Positions 1 through 22,671 of a stretch of DNA of 45,051 bases are shown one piece after another. The DNA is from Vectrevirus T145P2. Every line of letters starts with the position of its first letter. Positions within the stretch are counted from its first letter, which is position 1. The translations under genes were made by a program, and so were the position numbers. Location: sequence record OZ035747.1, one strand, 5' to 3'. The notes under the pieces are model-generated. The model worked only from the letters and a program-made list of their open reading frames with translations, was not told the DNA's origin and searched no databases.

Positions 1-46
1 TAATAAGTTCAAGATTTGGAGGGAGAAGCGTGAGCGTACACAATAA
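1..46 (+). CDS. C-terminal fragment of class II holin (5-prime partial; in-frame continuation of the ORF at 44903..45051 if the sequence is circular)
   Basis: Window end leaves 2 nt (ta) that with nt 1 form TAT; reading on gives YNKFKIWREKRERTQ then TAA at 44-46, a basic tail typical of holins. Confidence 0.45.
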   Translation, partial: NKFKIWREKRERTQ

Positions 47-329
47 ACATGCAGCTACAGAGGACGAGGTTGGCATTCTGCATGGTGCTATTACCAAAAT
101 CTTCAATAAGAAAGCACAGGCAATACTGGACACTATAGAAGAAGACCCTGATGCAGCATTACATTTAGTGTCTGGTAAGGATATTGGTGCGATGTGTAAG
201 TGGGTTCTTGATAACGGCATTACCGCCACACCTGCTGCACAGCAGGAAGAGTCCAAGTTATCTAAGCGCCTCAAGGCTATCCGAGAGGCATCCAGTGGCA
301 AGATTATTCAGTTTACAAAAGAGGAGTGA
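30..329 (+). CDS. terminase small subunit (T7 gp18-like), GTG start
   Basis: GGAGG at 21-25 then GTG at 30; 99 aa; position directly upstream of large terminase; loose resemblance to T7 gp18 as I recall it. Confidence 0.5.
   Translation: MSVHNKHAATEDEVGILHGAITKIFNKKAQAILDTIEEDPDAALHLVSGKDIGAMCKWVLDNGITATPAAQQEESKLSKRLKAIREASSGKIIQFTKEE
122..144 (+). promoter_or_regulatory. phage RNAP promoter-like site inside the small terminase gene
   Basis: AATACTGGACACTATAGAAGAAG; matches the genome consensus except at the upstream AT-rich positions. Confidence 0.5.
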
Positions 330-330
330 T

Positions 331-774
331 ATGCATAGATGGTGTGAATCTCAAGGTTATACCATCTTACCTTCTGGTGTCATCCTTTCAAAGGGTGGCA
401 CCCCTCTCAAACCATTCAAGGCGGGTAGGGGTTATTTAGCAGTTAAAATTAAAAATAAAGAAGGTAAATGGCGTAATGTCTATGTTCATCAATTAGTGGC
501 TTATAAGTATTTACCTAAAACTAATAATGAAGTAAACCACAAAGACGGCGATAAGCACAACAATGATGTTAGCAACTTGGAGTGGGTAACAAGAAGCGAG
601 AATAACTATTTAAAATGCAATGGAAATGATAGGAGTGCCTTAAATAGCTATTTAGCAAGATTAAAAGATTGCTTCTTGCAAGGTAAGGGTGTAGCAGAAA
701 CCGCTAGACTTACTGGTAAAAGTGAACCAAGAGTTTCTTCTCTCTTTAAGGAGTGGCGAAATGGCAAAGGCTAG
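331..774 (+). CDS. HNH homing endonuclease with C-terminal HTH-like region
   Basis: ATG 331 after GAGGAG; motif EVNHKDGDKHNNDVSNLEWVTRSEN typical of HNH_3 nucleases; gene visibly AT-rich relative to neighbours; overlaps large terminase start by 14 nt. Confidence 0.8.
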   Translation: MHRWCESQGYTILPSGVILSKGGTPLKPFKAGRGYLAVKIKNKEGKWRNVYVHQLVAYKYLPKTNNEVNHKDGDKHNNDVSNLEWVTRSENNYLKCNGNDRSALNSYLARLKDCFLQGKGVAETARLTGKSEPRVSSLFKEWRNGKG

Positions 775-2659
775 AGAATCACAGGCAGAGGCATTAAAGC
801 GGTGGGAAAACCTTAAAGAACTACAAGACACTTTTAAATATACAGCGGAAGGTTTGCTTCTCTTTGCAGATACAGTTATTCATAACTTAATTGCAGGCAA
901 CCCTCATCTGATTCGTATGCAGGCGGATATCTTGAAGTTCCTATTTTACGGACACAAGTACCGCCTCATCGAAGCGCCTCGTGGTATCGCTAAGACAACA
1001 CTATCAGCAATCTATACGGTATTCCGTATTATTCATGAACCGCATAAGCGTATCATGGTTGTGTCCCAAAACGCCAAGCGAGCAGAGGAAATCGCAGGTT
1101 GGGTAGTTAAAATCTTCCGTGGCTTAGACTTTCTTGAGTTTATGCTGCCGGATATCTACGCTGGGGACCGTGCATCCGTTAAGGCGTTTGAGATTCATTA
1201 CACCCTACGTGGTAGTGATAAGTCTCCTTCTGTATCCTGTTACTCAATCGAAGCAGGTATGCAGGGTGCTCGTGCTGATATTATTCTAGCGGATGACGTA
1301 GAGTCGATGCAGAATGCTCGTACGGCAGCGGGCCGTGCCTTGCTTGAGGAACTGACTAAGGAGTTTGAATCTATCAACCAGTTTGGGGATATCATTTACC
1401 TTGGTACACCTCAGAACGTAAACTCTATCTACAACAACCTACCTGCTCGTGGTTACTCTGTTCGTATCTGGACTGCGCGTTACCCTTCAGTAGAGCAAGA
1501 GCAATGTTATGGCGACTTCCTTGCACCTATGATTGTGCAGGATATGAAGGACAACCCAGCACTGCGCTCAGGGTACGGGTTGGATGGTAATAGTGGTGCA
1601 CCTTGTGCCCCTGAAATGTATGATGATGAAGTCCTGATTGAGAAGGAAATCTCTCAGGGTGCTGCTAAGTTCCAGCTTCAGTTCATGCTTAACACTCGCA
1701 TGATGGATGCTGACAGATACCCATTACGCCTGAACAATCTAATCTTCACCTCGTTTGGTACAGAGGAAGTCCCTGTGATGCCTACGTGGAGTAATGATTC
1801 CATAAACATCATTGGTGATGCACCTAAGTATGGTAACAAGCCTACGGATTTCATGTACAGACCTGTAGCTCGCCCATACGAATGGGGTGCTGTCTCCCGC
1901 AAGATTATGTATATTGACCCTGCGGGTGGCGGTAAGAATGGGGATGAGACGGGTGTGGCTATCGTATTCCTGCACGGCACATTCATTTACGTGTATCAGT
2001 GCTTCGGTGTGCCGGGTGGATACCGCGAATCGTCCCTGAATCGCATTGTGCAGGCCGCAAAGCAGGCGGGTGTTAAAGAGGTATTCATTGAGAAGAACTT
2101 TGGTCATGGCGCGTTTGAGGCGGTAATTAAGCCGTACTTTGAACGAGAGTGGCCTGTAACGCTGGAAGAGGATTACGCCACCGGACAGAAAGAGTTGCGT
2201 ATCATTGAGACGCTGGAGCCGCTCATGGCAGCTCATAGGCTTATCTTCAATACAGAGATGGTGAAGTCAGACTTTGAGTCGGTACAGCACTACCCGCTTG
2301 AACTACGCATGTCCTACAGTCTTTTCAATCAAATGTCGAACATAACGATTGAGAAGAACAGCCTCCGGCACGATGACCGCCTAGACGCCCTGTATGGCGC
2401 TATACGGCAATTAACTTCTCAGATAGACTATGACGAGGTTACACGGATTAATCGCCTCAGAGCGCAGGAGATGCGCGATTACATCCATGCTATGAACACA
2501 CCTCATCTACGCAGGGCAATGCTATATGGAGATTACGGTACTGAGCGAAGAGTGACCAACACTTCCGTAGCGATGCAGCAGCGAGTTTACGGGCAGAACT
2601 ACCGAAATAAATCGGCAAGCAGAAATACACTTTCTGCAAGGATTTCAAGGACTTATTAA
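761..2659 (+). CDS. terminase large subunit (T7 gp19-like)
   Basis: AAGGAG then ATG 761; 632 aa; ATPase region RGIAKTTL...ILADDVESM and nuclease region DPAGGGKNGDETGVAIV. Confidence 0.93.
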   Translation: MAKARESQAEALKRWENLKELQDTFKYTAEGLLLFADTVIHNLIAGNPHLIRMQADILKFLFYGHKYRLIEAPRGIAKTTLSAIYTVFRIIHEPHKRIMVVSQNAKRAEEIAGWVVKIFRGLDFLEFMLPDIYAGDRASVKAFEIHYTLRGSDKSPSVSCYSIEAGMQGARADIILADDVESMQNARTAAGRALLEELTKEFESINQFGDIIYLGTPQNVNSIYNNLPARGYSVRIWTARYPSVEQEQCYGDFLAPMIVQDMKDNPALRSGYGLDGNSGAPCAPEMYDDEVLIEKEISQGAAKFQLQFMLNTRMMDADRYPLRLNNLIFTSFGTEEVPVMPTWSNDSINIIGDAPKYGNKPTDFMYRPVARPYEWGAVSRKIMYIDPAGGGKNGDETGVAIVFLHGTFIYVYQCFGVPGGYRESSLNRIVQAAKQAGVKEVFIEKNFGHGAFEAVIKPYFEREWPVTLEEDYATGQKELRIIETLEPLMAAHRLIFNTEMVKSDFESVQHYPLELRMSYSLFNQMSNITIEKNSLRHDDRLDALYGAIRQLTSQIDYDEVTRINRLRAQEMRDYIHAMNTPHLRRAMLYGDYGTERRVTNTSVAMQQRVYGQNYRNKSASRNTLSARISRTY

Positions 2660-2680
2660 TTACTGGACACTATAGAAGGA
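2658..2680 (+). promoter_or_regulatory. phage RNAP promoter
   Basis: ATTACTGGACACTATAGAAGG immediately after terminase stop; followed by AT-rich leader with TAGGT repeats. Confidence 0.8.
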
Positions 2681-2819
2681 AAGCCCAGATAATAAGATAA
2701 ATAATAGGTAATATATAGGTTAACCTAGGTTATATAGGTATACCTTAGTATGGGTGTACTCCTGTACACCCTATTCCTTACTACCTTACTATATTTACAT
2801 AATAGGAGAGAGAGAGACA

Positions 2820-3098
2820 ATGGCTAATGATTATAGTAGTCAACCATTAACAGGTAAGTCTAAGCGAAAGCAGGTACAACCTGTAAGTGAAGCACTAATG
2901 CTTCCGGTACTCAAAAAAGAGGAAGTTAGTAAGAAAAGCAATGTTATTAATGATGCCACCAAATCAGGTAAACAGAAAGGGGCCATGGTGTGCCTTGAAG
3001 TGGAAGGTGGTGTATTGAAGATTGCTATCGCGGTTGATGGCAAAGAAGATTCAGAGTGGAAGTTAGTAACAGTGGAACCAGCTGTTAACCCAGTTTAA
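2820..3098 (+). CDS. hypothetical protein, paralog A of a tandem pair
   Basis: ATG 2820; 92 aa; shares SGKQKGAMV.LE...IA.A...W motif with next gene. Confidence 0.6.
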   Translation: MANDYSSQPLTGKSKRKQVQPVSEALMLPVLKKEEVSKKSNVINDATKSGKQKGAMVCLEVEGGVLKIAIAVDGKEDSEWKLVTVEPAVNPV

Positions 3099-3116
3099 GA
3101 TAAGGAGGAAGATTAC

Positions 3117-3410
3117 ATGGCTAAATATGGTACTACAGGTTCTGTTACTGGTCAGGCTTTTCGAGTAAAAGCAGTACAAACTATTGCAACGGCAATCCCG
3201 ATGCCTGTTGTTAAAGAAGCAGACCTTAAGAGTAAAGATCACCCTATCAACATCAAACATTTATCAGGTAAACAGAAAGGTGCAATGGTTGCTCTTGAGA
3301 AAAGTGACACAACCTTACATATTGCTGTTGCACGTGGTAGTGAACCAACAGACCCTTGGGATGTAACTGGCATGGAATCGCTCGCTGTCACTCCAGCAGG
3401 TGGAGAATAA
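3117..3410 (+). CDS. hypothetical protein, paralog B of a tandem pair
   Basis: AAGGAGG then ATG 3117; 97 aa; clear similarity to 2820..3098. Confidence 0.65.
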   Translation: MAKYGTTGSVTGQAFRVKAVQTIATAIPMPVVKEADLKSKDHPINIKHLSGKQKGAMVALEKSDTTLHIAVARGSEPTDPWDVTGMESLAVTPAGGE

Positions 3411-3754
3411 TGCTTAACAAATACTTCAAGCGCCGTGAGTTCGCTTGCCGTTGTGGGTGCGGTACATCCACTGTTGATGCTGAATTACTACAAGTAGTCA
3501 CAGATGTGCGTGAGCACTTTGGTTCTCCTGTAGTTATCACTTCTGGGCACCGCTGTGCTAAGCACAATGCTAATGTAGGAGGAGCTAAGAACTCCATGCA
3601 TCTTACTGGTAAGGCTGCTGACATTAAAGTTACTGGTATTGGGCCAATGGAGGTTCGTGCATACCTGTGCAATAAATACCCAGATAAATATGGTATTGGT
3701 GCTTATCCTACTTTCACTCATATTGATGTGAGGGATAATAAAGCACGATGGTAA
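3410..3754 (+). CDS. peptidase M15-family zinc peptidase, probable endolysin
   Basis: ATG 3410 overlapping previous stop; 114 aa; FACRCGCG, SGHRCAKHN, MHLTGKAADI and THID motifs characteristic of LAS/M15 peptidases. Confidence 0.78.
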   Translation: MLNKYFKRREFACRCGCGTSTVDAELLQVVTDVREHFGSPVVITSGHRCAKHNANVGGAKNSMHLTGKAADIKVTGIGPMEVRAYLCNKYPDKYGIGAYPTFTHIDVRDNKARW

Positions 3755-3879
3755 GATGCATTGAATGGTGTGAGCGCATGGTTGCTCAGGCTGCCGAGGA
3801 CGGCAACTATGATGACTGGAAGAACTACTCGGACTTGTTAGCTCAATGGAAAGGGAGATGTGATGAAAAAACTGTTTAA
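3748..3879 (+). CDS. small hypothetical ORF (43 aa)
   Basis: ATG 3748 overlapping endolysin 3-prime end; weak RBS; may be non-coding. Confidence 0.25.
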   Translation: MVRCIEWCERMVAQAAEDGNYDDWKNYSDLLAQWKGRCDEKTV

Positions 3880-4012
3880 GTCTAAGAAAGTGGTAGGTGC
3901 ACTAGTTGCACTGGTAATTGCCCTTGTTTCTGTAGGTCTTGGCGTAGACCTTGGTGAAGGTACGGAAGGTTCCGTCACTGACGTGGTATGCCAAGTAATC
4001 ACCTGTGAATAA
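3863..4012 (+). CDS. small membrane protein in lysis cassette (49 aa; holin/antiholin or spanin component)
   Basis: GGGAG then ATG 3863; MKKLFKSKK then 19-residue hydrophobic segment VVGALVALVIALVSVGLGV. Confidence 0.45.
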   Translation: MKKLFKSKKVVGALVALVIALVSVGLGVDLGEGTEGSVTDVVCQVITCE

Positions 4013-4089
4013 GGTGCTTGAGGTGGTGGCAGGTCTTATCGGCCTGCTGCTTGCCGCTAAGAAGAAGAAGGAAGACAAGGAGGCACAAA

Positions 4090-4299
4090 GTGAAGCGAAT
4101 CATGTTAGTGACAATCCTGCTGATTGGTTCGCTGATCACTTCCGGGTGTCAGCAGGCGTTACCAGAGAAAGCAATGGTGAAACCTCTGAGGCCGACGCTG
4201 ACGGAAGTTTACGAGGTAGACGATAAGGTCTGCTTTAGTAAGCCTGACGCTACAAAATTAGGTTTGTATATTCTTTCGCTAGAACGCGGATATAATTAA
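4090..4299 (+). CDS. outer-membrane lipoprotein, probable o-spanin (Rz1-like)
   Basis: AAGGAGG at 4077-4083 then GTG 4090 (alternative ATG 4102); MKRIMLVTILLIGSLITSGC lipoprotein signal with Cys; short Pro-containing mature part with second Cys. Confidence 0.55.
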   Translation: MKRIMLVTILLIGSLITSGCQQALPEKAMVKPLRPTLTEVYEVDDKVCFSKPDATKLGLYILSLERGYN

Positions 4300-4328: not shown

Positions 4329-4351
4329 ATTTACTGGACACTATAGAAGAG
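4329..4351 (+). promoter_or_regulatory. phage RNAP promoter upstream of tailspike genes
   Basis: ATTTACTGGACACTATAGAAGAGG, exact consensus. Confidence 0.85.
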
Positions 4352-4430
4352 GTAAGATAGCGCCGTTCTTTTGAACGGCCTATTACTAGCCAATCTTCAT
4401 AGGGAGGGTTGGGAAGTAATAGGAGGTTTA

Positions 4431-5870
4431 ATGGCTAATATTACCAAACCTGTCACAACTGGTATTATACATGAAGGAAGGCTGCTATCAGATTATCTAA
4501 AACAAGCATGGGATAACACCTTACACGCTGATAACTACTTTGTTAGTGTTAAAGACTTTGGCGCTAAGGGTGATGGCTCTGCTGATGATACTGCTGCATT
4601 CAAAGCTGCACTTGCTTCTGGTAAGAATGTATATATCCCTGTAGGTATTTATATAATTAGTGAGACTTTGTATTTTAAGAATCAGGTTATAAAAGGGGGC
4701 GGAATAGCACCTATTCCGAGTCTTGGTACAATCCTTGCAATCTCACACAGTGAGCCTGCATTGAAATATGATGTAAGTGCAGGTTACTCTATGGGTGGTT
4801 ATTTAGGTGGGTTCTTCATAGATTATGGAGAGAACAAACCAGATAACTATGCAGGCAGAAAAGGCATAGATCTAGGTGATGCCGACCAACAAGCATGGCC
4901 TTCTCAATTTATCATTGAGAACATCATTGTCCGTGGTGCATACTTTGGTTTGCATGATGAAACAGGAGCATTCCAATACTCAATGCGCAATGTGGTTGCT
5001 ATCAATTGCTGGGAGGGGTTCCGTAAGTTCACTGGAACTACAGTCCTTATGGATACATGCTATGCGCTTAATTGCTATCAAGCATATAGACTGGCTAATG
5101 TTTATAATATGACAATGAATAACTGCGCCATGGATGGATGTAATGATATCCAAGGTTTACAGGCATTTGATATTACAAACTGCAAAGGTCTTGTGATAAA
5201 TGGCATGTATAGTGAGAATTGTGAGATCCATCATAGCGGTAATGCTTCTATATTTATTCATGGAGATTCTACAGTAACAATCAACGGTTATACCTTACAC
5301 TCGCATAATGTCGTTGTTGATCCAGCATCTGGAAGTGAAGAAGCATACTTTCTTAGAGCGCACGACAGCTCTAGGGTCAATGTAGATGGAATCTTCTTCG
5401 GTGAGAACCTTAAATCTACTAGTATCTTCACCTACCCAATTATGGCCTCTGGTGAGTCTAGAATTAAGCTAGGAACTACAGCACTTAAGGCATGGGTCGG
5501 TGCTAAGGGTGGTGCATCTATGGCTGCTGTTGAAGATAGTCTCATTGAATATGACAATACCGTATTTAACCCATCACTTACTGTAGGTTGGTGCAGTAAT
5601 AATGGTGTTGTAGCTAAAGGGACACTAGTTGTAAACACAACATTAGAACCTAATGCAGATTTAAATGCAGGAACTATACAATTAGTTGGTGACTATAAAC
5701 CAAATAAAGGTGATGTTCTTACATATGGTTCTACTTTCGATGTTCAATCATGTGCTATTATTCTGAAGCCACAAGGTGATAATAGTTGTAATGTTTACAT
5801 TAAAAACCTAAGTGCAGGTAGTAGTGTTACACTTAACGGAATATTGCACGTACAGGCAATTCGTAGGTAA
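4431..5870 (+). CDS. tailspike 1: beta-helix polysaccharide depolymerase/lyase-like protein (possibly K5-type lyase)
   Basis: AGGAGG then ATG 4431; 479 aa; KDFGAKGDGSADDTAAFKAALASGKNVYIP start of pectate-lyase-like beta-helix; repeated N-x-C turns; lacks T7 gp17-type N-terminal domain. Confidence 0.75.
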   Translation: MANITKPVTTGIIHEGRLLSDYLKQAWDNTLHADNYFVSVKDFGAKGDGSADDTAAFKAALASGKNVYIPVGIYIISETLYFKNQVIKGGGIAPIPSLGTILAISHSEPALKYDVSAGYSMGGYLGGFFIDYGENKPDNYAGRKGIDLGDADQQAWPSQFIIENIIVRGAYFGLHDETGAFQYSMRNVVAINCWEGFRKFTGTTVLMDTCYALNCYQAYRLANVYNMTMNNCAMDGCNDIQGLQAFDITNCKGLVINGMYSENCEIHHSGNASIFIHGDSTVTINGYTLHSHNVVVDPASGSEEAYFLRAHDSSRVNVDGIFFGENLKSTSIFTYPIMASGESRIKLGTTALKAWVGAKGGASMAAVEDSLIEYDNTVFNPSLTVGWCSNNGVVAKGTLVVNTTLEPNADLNAGTIQLVGDYKPNKGDVLTYGSTFDVQSCAIILKPQGDNSCNVYIKNLSAGSSVTLNGILHVQAIRR

Positions 5871-5899: not shown

Positions 5900-5953
5900 G
5901 CGCAACTTTTCTTAAAGGTTATCATGATGGTAGCCTTTCAGAAAGGAGGTTAC

Positions 5954-8389
5954 ATGATTCAAAGACTAGGTTCTTCATTAGTTAAATTCAAGAGTAAAAT
6001 AGCAGGTGCAATCTGGCGTAACTTGGATGACAAGCTCACCGAGGTTGTATCGCTTAAAGATTTTGGAGCCAAAGGTGATGGTAAGACAAACGACCAAGAT
6101 GCAGTAAATGCAGCGATGGCTTCAGGTAAGAGAATTGACGGTGCTGGTGCTACTTACAAAGTATCATCTTTACCTGATATGGAGCGATTCTATAACACCC
6201 GCTTCGTATGGGAACGTTTAGCAGGTCAACCTCTTTACTATGTGAGTAAAGGTTTTATCAATGGTGAACTATATAAAATCACGGATAACCCTTATTACAA
6301 TGCTTGGCCTCAAGACAAAGCGTTTGTATATGAGAACGTGATATATGCACCTTACATGGGTAGTGACCGTCATGGTGTTAGTCGTCTGCATGTATCATGG
6401 GTTAAGTCTGGTGACGATGGTCAAACATGGTCTACTCCAGAGTGGTTAACTGATCTGCATCCAGATTACCCTACAGTGAACTATCATTGTATGAGCATGG
6501 GTGTATGTCGCAACCGTCTGTTTGCCATGATTGAAACACGTACTTTAGCCAATAACGCACTAACCAATTGTGCATTGTGGGATCGTCCTATGTCTCGTAG
6601 TCTGCACCTTACTGGTGGTATCACTAAGGCTGCAAATCAGCAATATGCAACAATACATGTACCAGATCACGGATTATTCGTGGGCGATTTTGTTAACTTC
6701 TCTAATTCTGCGGTAACAGGTGTATCAGGTGATATGACTGTTGCAACGGTAATAGATAAGGACAACTTCACGGTTCTTACACCTAACCAGCAGACTTCAG
6801 ATTTGAATAACGCTGGAAAGAGTTGGCACATGGGTACTTCTTTCCATAAGTCTCCATGGCGTAAGACAGATCTTGGTCTAATCCCTAGTGTCACAGAGGT
6901 GCATAGCTTTGCTACTATTGATAACAATGGCTTTGTTATGGGATATCATCAAGGTGATGTAGCTCCACGAGAAGTTGGTCTTTTCTACTTCCCTGATGCT
7001 TTCAATAGCCCATCTAATTATGTTCGTCGTCAGATACCATCTGAGTATGAACCAGATGCGTCAGAGCCATGCATCAAGTACTATGACGGTGTATTATACC
7101 TTATCACTCGTGGCACTCGTGGTGACAGACTTGGAAGCTCTTTGCATCGTAGTAGAGATATAGGTCAGACTTGGGAGTCACTGAGATTTCCACATAATGT
7201 TCATCATACTACCTTACCTTTTGCTAAAGTAGGAGATGACCTTATTATGTTTGGTTCAGAACGTGCAGAAAATGAATGGGAAGCAGGTGCACCAGATGAC
7301 CGTTACAGGGCATCTTATCCTCGTACCTTCTATGCACGATTGAATGTAAACAATTGGAATGCAGATGATATTGAATGGGTTAACATCACAGACCAAATCT
7401 ATCAAGGGGACATTGTGAACTCTAGTGTAGGTGTAGGTTCTGTTGTAGTTAAAGACAGCTACATTTACTATATCTTTGGTGGTGAAAATCATTTCAACCC
7501 AATGACTTATGGTGACAACAAAAATAAAGACCCATTTAAAGGTCATGGACACCCTACTGATATATACTGCTATAAGATGCAGATTGCAAATGACAATCGT
7601 GTATCTCGTAAGTTTACATATGGTGCAACTCCTGGTCAAGCTATACCTACTTTCATGGGTACTGATGGGGTACGAAATATCCCTGCACCTTTGTATTTCT
7701 CAGATAACATTGTTACAGAGGATACTAAAGTTGGACACTTAACAATTAAAGCAAGCACAAGTTCCAATATACGATCTGAAGCGCAGATGGAAGGTGAATA
7801 TGGCTTTATTGGCAAGTCTGTTCCAAAGGATAACCCAACTGGTCAACGTTTGATTATTTGTGGTGGAGAAGAGACTTCGTCCTCTTCAGGTGCACAGATA
7901 ACTTTGCACGGCTCTAATTCAAGTAATGCTAATCGTATCACTTATAACGGAAATGAGCACCTATTCCAAGGTGCACCAATCATGCCTGCTGTAGATAACC
8001 AGTTTGCTGCTGGTGGGCCTAGTAACCGATTCACTACCATCTACCTAGGTAGTGACCCTGTTACAACTTCAGATGCTGAACACAAGTACGGCATCTCTAG
8101 TATTAATACCAAGGTGTTAAAGGCTTGGGGTAGAGTTGGTTTTAAACAGTATGGTTTGAATAGTGAAGCAGAGAGGAATCTTGATAGCATACACTTCGGT
8201 GTCTTGGCTCAGGATATTGTAGCTGCTTTTGAAGCTGAAGGATTGGATGCCATTAAGTATGGAATTGTGTCCTTCGAAGAAGGTAGGTACGGTGTGAGAT
8301 ATAGTGAAGTTCTAATCCTAGAGGCTGCCTACACTCGCCATCGTCTTGATAAATTAGAGGAGATGTACGCCGCTAATAAAATCAGTTAA
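5954..8389 (+). CDS. tailspike 2: endo-N-acetylneuraminidase (endosialidase) with C-terminal intramolecular chaperone domain
   Basis: AAAGGAGG then ATG 5954; 811 aa; C-terminal SDAEHKYGISS...LDSIHFGVLAQD region resembles the self-cleaving chaperone domain of K1-phage endosialidases (from memory). Confidence 0.85.
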   Translation: MIQRLGSSLVKFKSKIAGAIWRNLDDKLTEVVSLKDFGAKGDGKTNDQDAVNAAMASGKRIDGAGATYKVSSLPDMERFYNTRFVWERLAGQPLYYVSKGFINGELYKITDNPYYNAWPQDKAFVYENVIYAPYMGSDRHGVSRLHVSWVKSGDDGQTWSTPEWLTDLHPDYPTVNYHCMSMGVCRNRLFAMIETRTLANNALTNCALWDRPMSRSLHLTGGITKAANQQYATIHVPDHGLFVGDFVNFSNSAVTGVSGDMTVATVIDKDNFTVLTPNQQTSDLNNAGKSWHMGTSFHKSPWRKTDLGLIPSVTEVHSFATIDNNGFVMGYHQGDVAPREVGLFYFPDAFNSPSNYVRRQIPSEYEPDASEPCIKYYDGVLYLITRGTRGDRLGSSLHRSRDIGQTWESLRFPHNVHHTTLPFAKVGDDLIMFGSERAENEWEAGAPDDRYRASYPRTFYARLNVNNWNADDIEWVNITDQIYQGDIVNSSVGVGSVVVKDSYIYYIFGGENHFNPMTYGDNKNKDPFKGHGHPTDIYCYKMQIANDNRVSRKFTYGATPGQAIPTFMGTDGVRNIPAPLYFSDNIVTEDTKVGHLTIKASTSSNIRSEAQMEGEYGFIGKSVPKDNPTGQRLIICGGEETSSSSGAQITLHGSNSSNANRITYNGNEHLFQGAPIMPAVDNQFAAGGPSNRFTTIYLGSDPVTTSDAEHKYGISSINTKVLKAWGRVGFKQYGLNSEAERNLDSIHFGVLAQDIVAAFEAEGLDAIKYGIVSFEEGRYGVRYSEVLILEAAYTRHRLDKLEEMYAANKIS

Positions 8390-10736: not shown

Positions 10737-10901
10737 ATGACTAACGCACAACGTAAACGCTATGATGCATTGCAAGAGAAACTTGCTGTTGCTTATGCCG
10801 CTTGGCAAGCTAACACAGACAAGAGCAAACACGATAAACTTTATAGTAAAGTGGTTGCAATTAATGCTAAAATAGATAAACTTGTGAATAGTATCTTATA
10901 A
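10737..10901 (+). CDS. small early protein (54 aa), predicted helical
   Basis: ATG 10737 after AAAGGTGA; followed by hairpin 10909-10924. Confidence 0.45.
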   Translation: MTNAQRKRYDALQEKLAVAYAAWQANTDKSKHDKLYSKVVAINAKIDKLVNSIL

Positions 10902-11050
10902 GATAGTTGCTGGCACTAGCCAGCCTATCAAGGCACAAGCCACGCTCTTTAACAATATGGGTAGTCGCTTCTTAGTCTGGATAGGTTAAACCTAGGGTAT
11001 TCTTTTGAGTGCCCTATAATGTAAACTAACTAACTAATGAGGATTAAATC

Positions 11051-11380
11051 ATGGAACGCAACGCTAACGCTTACTACAACCTTCTGGCTGCAACTGTTGA
11101 AGCATTCAACGAGCGCATCAAGTACGATGAGATTCGTGAAGATGATGATTACTCTGATGCACTGCATGAGGTTGTAGATAGCATGGTGCCAGTTTATTAC
11201 AGCGAAATCTTTACTGTGATGGCTGCTGATGGCATTGATGTTGATTTTGAAGATGCTGGTTTGATTCCTGATACGAAGGATGTAACCAAGATTCTACAAG
11301 CTCGCATCTATGAAGCTCTTTATAATGATGTACCAAATGACAGCGATGTAGTTTGGTATGAAGGCGAAGAAGAGGAATAA
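11051..11380 (+). CDS. ocr: Ocr-like DNA-mimic anti-restriction protein (T7 gp0.3 homolog)
   Basis: 109 aa, very acidic; VPVYYSEIFTVMAADGIDVDFEDAGLIPDTKDVTKILQARIYEAL closely parallels the T7 Ocr core as I recall it. Confidence 0.88.
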   Translation: MERNANAYYNLLAATVEAFNERIKYDEIREDDDYSDALHEVVDSMVPVYYSEIFTVMAADGIDVDFEDAGLIPDTKDVTKILQARIYEALYNDVPNDSDVVWYEGEEEE

Positions 11381-11384
11381 TAAG

Positions 11385-11498
11385 ATGGAAAGGCAATATA
11401 ACTTCATATTTTCAGACGGTGTAACCCTGAAATGTTCCTTACGATTTGCGCAGATTCGTGAGGAAGTGCTAGGTACTACATACAAACTATTTAGCTGA
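11385..11498 (+). CDS. small early protein (37 aa)
   Basis: GAGGA then ATG 11385. Confidence 0.35.
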   Translation: MERQYNFIFSDGVTLKCSLRFAQIREEVLGTTYKLFS

Positions 11499-22206: not shown

Positions 22207-22228
22207 ATTTACTGGACACTATAGAAGG
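22207..22228 (+). promoter_or_regulatory. phage RNAP promoter
   Basis: ATTTACTGGACACTATAGAAGG followed by AT-rich TAGGT-repeat leader. Confidence 0.85.
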
Positions 22229-22293
22229 AAATCCTAGGTAATCTAGGTTTATAAGGTAGTATAGGTAATTAAGTAAATATAGGAGATATAAAT

Positions 22294-22671
22294 ATGTCTA
22301 TGGTAACTACTCTGGTATTCGTGGCTCAATACTTTCGTGGTCTTGCTAATAAGTTCAAGTCCAAGGCTATCAAAGCTATTGAGGCTCGCATCGAAGCAGT
22401 ACAGGCAGAGCAAGTTAAAGTTGAAGAGCATCGTAGTTCTCAAATGATTGACTGTCATAACCGCTACTATGCATCTCGTGATGAACTAAATGCACGTCAA
22501 GTCAAAGAGGTAGAAGATATGCTGGCACGTCACCAGCAAGAGCGTGACAGCCTGAAAGCTGAATTTGAAGAGAACAAGGCATCAATTGCTCTTGTAAATC
22601 AAGCTGCATCTGACAGCCTGAAGAAAGAGATTGTTATGCTGGAAATAGAACTGGACAACTTGACTAAATAA
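22294..22671 (+). CDS. hypothetical coiled-coil protein (125 aa)
   Basis: TAGGAGA then ATG 22294; hydrophobic N-terminus then heptad-rich sequence. Confidence 0.6.
   Translation: MSMVTTLVFVAQYFRGLANKFKSKAIKAIEARIEAVQAEQVKVEEHRSSQMIDCHNRYYASRDELNARQVKEVEDMLARHQQERDSLKAEFEENKASIALVNQAASDSLKKEIVMLEIELDNLTK

Follow-up and report, generated by a model that had tools for sequence, protein, structure and literature searches.

What do two short, adjacent genes behind the large terminase gene contribute to a phage of the K1-5 type? We examined this locus in Vectrevirus T145P2 (OZ035747.1), taking as the window the whole stretch of 45,051 nucleotides, which is a complete K1-5-like genome of ∼45 kb in rotated form. 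In a megablast search, positions 2600 to 3800 matched 110 phage records, the best being Escherichia phages of the genus Vectrevirus with 90 to 95% identity; the identity to K1-5 was 92.3%. An earlier note on this DNA had described the two genes as a duplication and had named minor virion or decoration proteins and a late-expressed host-interaction factor as possibilities.

Gene neighborhood

Both open reading frames (ORFs) are present at the coordinates listed in that note (Table 1) and correspond to genes 41 and 42 of the K1-5 records (AY370674). We refer to their products as gp41 and gp42; gp41 has 97% amino acid identity to its K1-5 counterpart. The pair does lie between packaging and lysis genes, as had been proposed, with the terminase upstream and the M15 endolysin, a holin, and then Rz-like spanins downstream. 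The module in the window is found directly 3′ of a T7-type large terminase gene and behind a phage promoter, and the same gene position is occupied in K1-5, Kp7, SP6, Pm5460, PP99, Vp670, Reminis, L005, and L007.

The surrounding genes have some features of their own. The two terminase genes, which directly abut in K1-5, are separated here by an HNH_3 ORF, which overlaps the 3′ part of the small terminase ORF and resembles a homing-endonuclease insertion. In the lysis cassette, the phrog_9219 ORF overlaps an Rz-like spanin ORF (4018-4299) in a different frame, in the manner of an embedded i-spanin/o-spanin pair.

Table 1. Features of the gp41/gp42 locus and its surroundings, in window coordinates
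Feature	Coordinates	Strand	Evidence or remark
Small terminase	30-329		PF11123
HNH_3 endonuclease ORF	184-774	+	PF13392, E = 4.4e-11
Large terminase	722-2659		PF22530
SP6/K1-5-type phage RNA polymerase promoter, 21-mer AATTACTGGACACTATAGAAG	2658..2678	+	Core 14-mer and conservation
TAGGT-type short-repeat array in 5′ leader	2704..2745	+	One of few TAGGT clusters in the window
GC-rich leader hairpin, 8 bp, then pyrimidine tract	2752..2771	+	GGGTGTAC/TCCT/GTACACCC; dG −13.1 kcal/mol
Shine-Dalgarno sequence for gp41, AGGAG	2804..2808	+	Sequence reading
gp41 ortholog, 92 aa, first copy of ∼85-aa module	2820..3098	+	phrog_2725, E = 4.5e-38
Shine-Dalgarno sequence for gp42, AAGGAGG	3102..3108	+	Sequence reading; 8 nt 5′ of ATG 3117
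gp42 ortholog, 97 aa, second copy of module	3117..3410	+	phrog_2725, E = 1.9e-45
Peptidase M15_3 endolysin	3410..3754	+	PF08291, E = 6.5e-33; outside the gp41/gp42 module
phrog_1312 ORF, 43 aa, conserved, uncharacterized	3748-3879		In lysis cassette
phrog_9219 ORF, 73 aa, conserved, uncharacterized	4005-4226		In lysis cassette
Two large ORFs	4371-5870 and 5924-8389		Same slot as the two K1-5 tail spike genes

Paralogy and conservation of gp41 and gp42

The duplication was borne out. A full-length BLASTP comparison of gp41 and gp42 gave 35 identities in 93 positions (38%) and a significant E value of 8e-16, and both products have the core SGKQKGAMV and the spacing P-V-(V/L)-K. In a 31-sequence alignment that includes gp41, gp42, and 29 further sequences from both paralog groups, the invariant positions are T11, G12, P30, N45, S50-G51-K52-Q53, A56, A72, and W81, and the near-invariant ones are R16, K18, G55, M57, V58, and a C-terminal P. 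Both proteins carry the resulting family motifs (the TG arm, P30, N45, SGKQ.GA, A72, W81, and the C-terminal [V/I]TP), and an HMM built from the alignment matches gp41 at an E value of 7.8e-41 and gp42 at 1.4e-43. A profile search of the whole window found no family copies beyond these two.

We found 104 homolog clusters for gp41 and 109 for gp42, with representatives that are 49 to 95% identical and located nearly all on phage contigs of ∼44 kb. Comparisons with the orthologs of K1-5, SP6, and Proteus phage Pm5460 yielded dN/dS values of 0.1 to 0.4 for both genes, which indicates that they are real genes under purifying selection. As the orthologs of gp41 begin with MAN(D/S)YS throughout, its start is the ATG at 2820 and not the upstream GTG at 2754. 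The gp42 stop codon overlaps the endolysin start (TAATG at 3408-3412), and the endolysin is translationally coupled to gp42.

The two genes share a reading frame, separated by TAA and five codons, and have in common an identical stretch of 17 nt, TCAGGTAAACAGAAAGG, in the part coding for the SGKQKG core. A hybrid joining the N-terminal part of gp41 to the C-terminal part of gp42 (P0206) was seen on two short metagenomic contigs of low coverage (L014 and L015), in both at the very edge. The recombinant may be genuine, or the assembly may have collapsed at the SGKQKGAM-coding core that both genes contain.

Promoter and 5′ leader

The earlier note gave the pair a promoter of its own at position 2658, and a conserved 21-mer of the SP6/K1-5 type indeed begins there. 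Its core 14-mer, GGACACTATAGAAG (here at 2665-2678), occurs eight times in the window without a mismatch, each time on the plus strand; allowing up to three mismatches, there are 16 sites compared with 4.5 expected. By analogy with the SP6 promoter, transcription is predicted to start at G2675. The promoter is conserved in K1-5, Kp7 has a divergent promoter at the same place, and a promoter is annotated at the equivalent position in Pm5460. This late phage promoter and the strong Shine-Dalgarno sites suggest that gp41 and gp42 are expressed late.

A leader hairpin had also been described, and it is real, but it had been placed one base off and given one pair too few. At the same position, stems are formed by GGGTACTC/GAGTACCC in Kp7, GGGAGGTA/TACCTCCC in SP6, GGGTAC/GTACCC in Pm5460, and GAGGGACTC/GAGTCCCTC in Vibrio phage Vp670. 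Because these stems vary in sequence yet stay paired, the hairpin is a conserved element. The view of the leader as structured applies to this local hairpin only, as the whole leader folds no better than shuffled sequences (z = −0.63). Short GC-rich hairpins also occur within ∼10 to 30 nt 3′ of the promoters at 4336, 22982, 27314, and 32396 (e.g., GGGAGAAAAGCTCTCCC after 32396), and 5′ hairpins therefore seem to be general to late transcripts here and not specific to gp41.

Just 5′ of the hairpin, TAGGT-type repeats recur with a spacing of roughly 10 nt. Arrays of the same kind, built from motifs that differ between clades, lie 5′ of the hairpin in SP6, Kp7, Pm5460, PP99, Reminis, and Vp670, the motif being GTAAGT/GTAAGC in PP99 and Reminis and AGAGC in Vp670. 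The array may be a set of sites bound by a phage protein or a translational element. The order of array, hairpin, and pyrimidine tract is kept in the leaders of relatives (L004, L009, L010, L011, L012, and L013), and the window has a second TAGGT-type array at 22235-22270, after the promoter at 22214 and ahead of the ORF at 22294-22671.

Domain searches and the acetyl-CoA acetyltransferase label

No Pfam or NCBIfam domain scored above threshold in gp41 or gp42, and PDB searches by sequence (with either protein or the family profile) and by fold gave no meaningful relative, which means that the binding mode cannot be modeled by homology. The earlier note had recognized no family; this holds for Pfam, NCBIfam, and the PDB but not for the catalogs, in which the proteins were already listed as K1-5 gp41/gp42 and as phrog_2725. 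None of the known decoration folds (the beta-tulip of gpD, the OB-fold of Dec, the Ig fold of Hoc and pb10, and the jellyroll of cement proteins) is shared by gp41 or gp42. A Foldseek search of BFVD returned uncharacterized family members and weak N-terminal matches only, and PADLOC gave no match that would indicate a defense or antidefense role. A similarity to Plexin/Sema (E of ∼0.1 with phmmer against the PDB and a "Sema domain" label in VEc3) was judged to be due to chance.

Thiolases are proteins of ∼390 aa that need a catalytic Cys. At 92 to 97 aa, gp41 and gp42 have a quarter of this length, and neither Pfam nor NCBIfam assigns them a domain, thiolase or other, at E values up to 0.1 to 1. 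Moreover, gp42 has no cysteine, the 31-sequence alignment has no conserved Cys or His column, and no thiolase came up in the PDB sequence search. The name "acetyl-CoA acetyltransferase" is nevertheless borne by phrog_2725, RefSeq NC_008152 (YP_654142/3), the SP6 record AY288927, and Table 2 of the UAB_Phi78 paper. Beyond this inherited label there is no likeness: the proteins differ from thiolases in size, in domain content, and in catalytic residues. With Pfam, NCBIfam, the PDB sequence search, and the residue check all contrary, we reject the acetyltransferase identity, which has practically no chance of being correct.

Homologs in Kp7 virions

Klebsiella phage Kp7 (Molineuxvirinae, ON148527) was matched when a distant family member served as the tblastn query against GenBank phages. 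The slot between its large terminase and endolysin genes holds gp45, gp46, and gp47, annotated as "minor capsid protein" and, for gp47, "with Ig-domain." Each of the three can be aligned with gp41 and gp42 and keeps all family invariants, and their identity to gp41 is 30 to 44% (44% for the virion protein gp45). In purified Kp7 virions, mass spectrometry (MS) of SDS-PAGE bands identified the minor capsid proteins gp32, gp45, gp46, and gp47, which the T7-like phages Kp9 and Kp11 lack (bioRxiv 10.1101/2024.05.19.594906). The wording "capsid" rather than "virion" is the authors' label from MS and BLAST, with no density shown (bioRxiv 10.1101/2024.05.19.594906). The family is thus virion associated in at least one SP6-like phage, which lends support to the minor virion or decoration possibility raised in the earlier note.

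Kp7 gp45 to gp47 share with gp41 and gp42 the sequence family, the gene slot, and the leader architecture with its covarying hairpin. Kp7 differs in having three genes, the third with a C-terminal Ig domain, whereas the window has two genes without a display domain; Pfam detects no Ig domain in gp41 or gp42. In the literature searched, we found no cryo-electron microscopy (cryo-EM) or proteomics for gp41/gp42 of K1-5, K1E, or SP6 (Vectrevirus included), and the papers on PP99, KBNP1315, and phiA318 contain nothing on these genes.

Copy number and domain architecture

An exhaustive HMM search with the combined alignment against 1.84 billion representatives returned 242 proteins at an E value of ≤1e-3. 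Among the best 144 of these, 88 are single domains of ∼90 aa, and about 40 consist of three tandem copies (260 to 300 aa; in some, the third has diverged beyond scoring). In about 15, a single N-terminal copy precedes a different domain, and 3 combine three copies with a C-terminal domain. By tblastn, the module is present in about 180 GenBank phage genomes.

The three-repeat proteins belong to uncultured Autographiviridae-like podoviruses known from metagenomes only and are unannotated. Each repeat of P0215, P0358, P0359, and others contains the gp41/gp42 motifs (a GD.K.K arm, N...SGK..GA, A.G, W, and ITP). Two traceable three-repeat genes lie immediately 3′ of a T7-type large terminase gene in contigs or fragments of ∼45 kb, which makes them positional orthologs of the gp41-gp42 pair, although they encode one three-domain polypeptide where the window has two separate genes. 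One of these genes is on the full-length contig L005, which also encodes a T7-like RNA polymerase. A search for related loci gave no match for P0215 and, for P0281, matches to its knob alone.

Cultured phages carry one or two copies (Vp670, Reminis, and PP99), two (the window, K1-5, and Pm5460), or three (Kp7 and SP6). The third SP6 member, gene 42.3 (L010, 2735-2980), is shortened to 81 aa and covers profile positions 8 to 62 only, and Zindervirus therefore carries 2.5 copies. In L005, a metagenomic podovirus of 44.8 kb, an apparent fourth copy follows the three-repeat gene (10855-11453); it is split over two frames, has a C-terminal extension of ∼110 aa, and could be frameshifted, in decay, or affected by a sequencing error.

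In the fusion proteins, the ∼85-aa domain is always N-terminal and the partner always C-terminal. The partners are knobs, head fibers, and Ig domains, all surface-exposed virion parts, and the first two are trimeric. The Sf6-type knob (PF16532) was matched at an E value of 1.7e-30 in P0281 and 5e-43 in P0343 and Reminis Rem54, and the phi29 head-fiber C terminus (PF11133) was matched in P0325 with 26.5 bits (gathering cutoff, 24.6). An Ig I-set domain is the partner in P0290 and Kp7 gp47, with the T5 pb10 Ig domain among the best PDB sequence matches (8zvi and 5lxk). In PP99, a knob protein lacking the anchor is encoded adjacent to a single-domain family member.

Predicted structure

With the 31-sequence alignment as input, the AlphaFold2 (AF2) model of gp42 has a core (residues 30 to 85) of moderate confidence, with pLDDT values of 80 to 87. 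The N-terminal arm (residues 1 to 17) is conserved yet disordered in the monomer model, as would be expected of a segment that becomes ordered only on binding. The model of the three-repeat protein P0215 reached a pLDDT of 88.5 and a pTM of 0.84, and a beta-alpha-alpha-beta-beta-beta arrangement recurs in its repeats. The pTM value points to a fixed mutual arrangement of the three domains, which may be related by pseudo-3-fold symmetry.

Proposed role and alternatives

The late promoter and ribosome-binding sites, the presence of homologs in Kp7 virions, the three-domain unit, the N-terminal placement of the domain, and the arm all fit an anchor or cement on the capsid surface. We consider gp41 and gp42 to be probably capsid proteins of the virion surface, of the minor capsid or decoration type. 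The Kp7 annotation and the nature of the fusion partners point to the capsid rather than the tail as the location in K1-5-like phages. The repeat number, the trimeric fusion partners, and the pTM value argue for a trimer; we hold the trimeric state and the binding site with less confidence than the capsid role.

In the mechanism that we propose, gp41 and gp42 would be late, strongly expressed proteins on the outside of the T7-supergroup head, each combining an extended conserved arm at the N terminus (TG..R.K) with a small alpha/beta barrel, in which the N....SGKQ.GAM loop is invariant and a Trp is buried. Three domains would make up the functional unit, as a trimer or pseudotrimer, supplied by one gene (as a homotrimer), by two (the window), by three (Kp7 and SP6), or as a three-repeat polypeptide. 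The unit may bind the mature HK97-type T=7 lattice, for which 3-fold or quasi-3-fold positions and the space over a hexamer center are the likeliest sites, and may stabilize the capsid there as a cement. In relatives, it would also anchor, from the N-terminal side, Ig, knob, or fiber domains that face outward. In K1-5-like phages, the two paralogs would either coassemble or take different quasi-equivalent sites.

A broader version of this proposal is tentative, and we would not yet bet on it: the ∼85-aa domain could be a capsid-anchoring fold, not described before, that functions solely in units of three and acts as a plug-in socket for head-displayed Ig domains, knobs, fibers, and possibly enzymes across many Autographiviridae, with gp41 and gp42 forming an obligate mixed trimer or dividing the sites between them. 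If true, it would define a new class of decoration proteins and give therapeutic K1/K5 and Klebsiella phages a ready platform for display.

The module could instead be an anchor of the tail or neck, by which small accessory proteins (in relatives, knobs, fibers, or enzymes) are attached at the tail, adaptor, or portal. The knob partner and weak similarities to tailspikes speak for such a location, but the Kp7 labeling and the head-type partners run against it, and we regard it as unlikely. Still less probable is that gp41 and gp42 are nonstructural late proteins, such as regulators of lysis timing or assembly chaperones, and that the detection in Kp7 virions was adventitious. The overlap of the gp42 and endolysin genes and the position of the pair at the head of the lysis cassette would suit a lysis-related function, and gp41 has a weak GroES-like NCBIfam match that falls under the cutoff (E = 0.01, 15.9 bits); the Kp7 proteomics and the fusions to display domains contradict this reading. 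As for the late-expressed host-interaction factor of the earlier note, such a role is possible for the Ig- or knob-bearing relatives, solely as a virion-borne function.

Implications

The K1-5 genes were already cataloged, and the Kp7 homologs have been listed as minor capsid proteins in a preprint. Within the literature searched, the series of one, two, and three genes and three-repeat proteins, the anchor-plus-display architecture, and the absence of a solved structural relative appear to be undescribed. Phages of the SP6/K1-5 type are therapeutic candidates against encapsulated E. coli, Klebsiella, and Salmonella, and two to three of their virion genes carry a false metabolic-enzyme name in RefSeq and PHROGs. 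Recognizing these products as probable head-surface proteins would correct how the module is annotated in about 180 GenBank phage genomes and define a decoration or anchor family that has no solved structure. The natural Ig, knob, and fiber fusions suggest that foreign domains might be displayed via the C terminus of gp41 or gp42, and the gene-number and three-repeat series provides a natural experiment in splitting and fusing an oligomeric capsid accessory.

Comparison with known decoration systems

Lambda gpD is a small trimeric cement protein whose N-terminal segment is disordered off the capsid. The gp41/gp42 family resembles cements of this type in its small size (∼10 kDa), in the disorder predicted for its N-terminal arm, in the trimer proposed as its unit on an HK97-fold T=7 shell, and in its dispensable-looking accessory status. 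With the phi29 gp8.5 head fiber, T5 pb10, and T4 Hoc, the relatives of gp41 and gp42 share the architecture of an anchor with an outward display domain. [quoted passage not shown] The PhiM1 proteins are helical and sit as dimers on 2-fold sites, in contrast to the beta-rich gp41/gp42 family with its proposed three-domain unit, and the two pairs have no homology.
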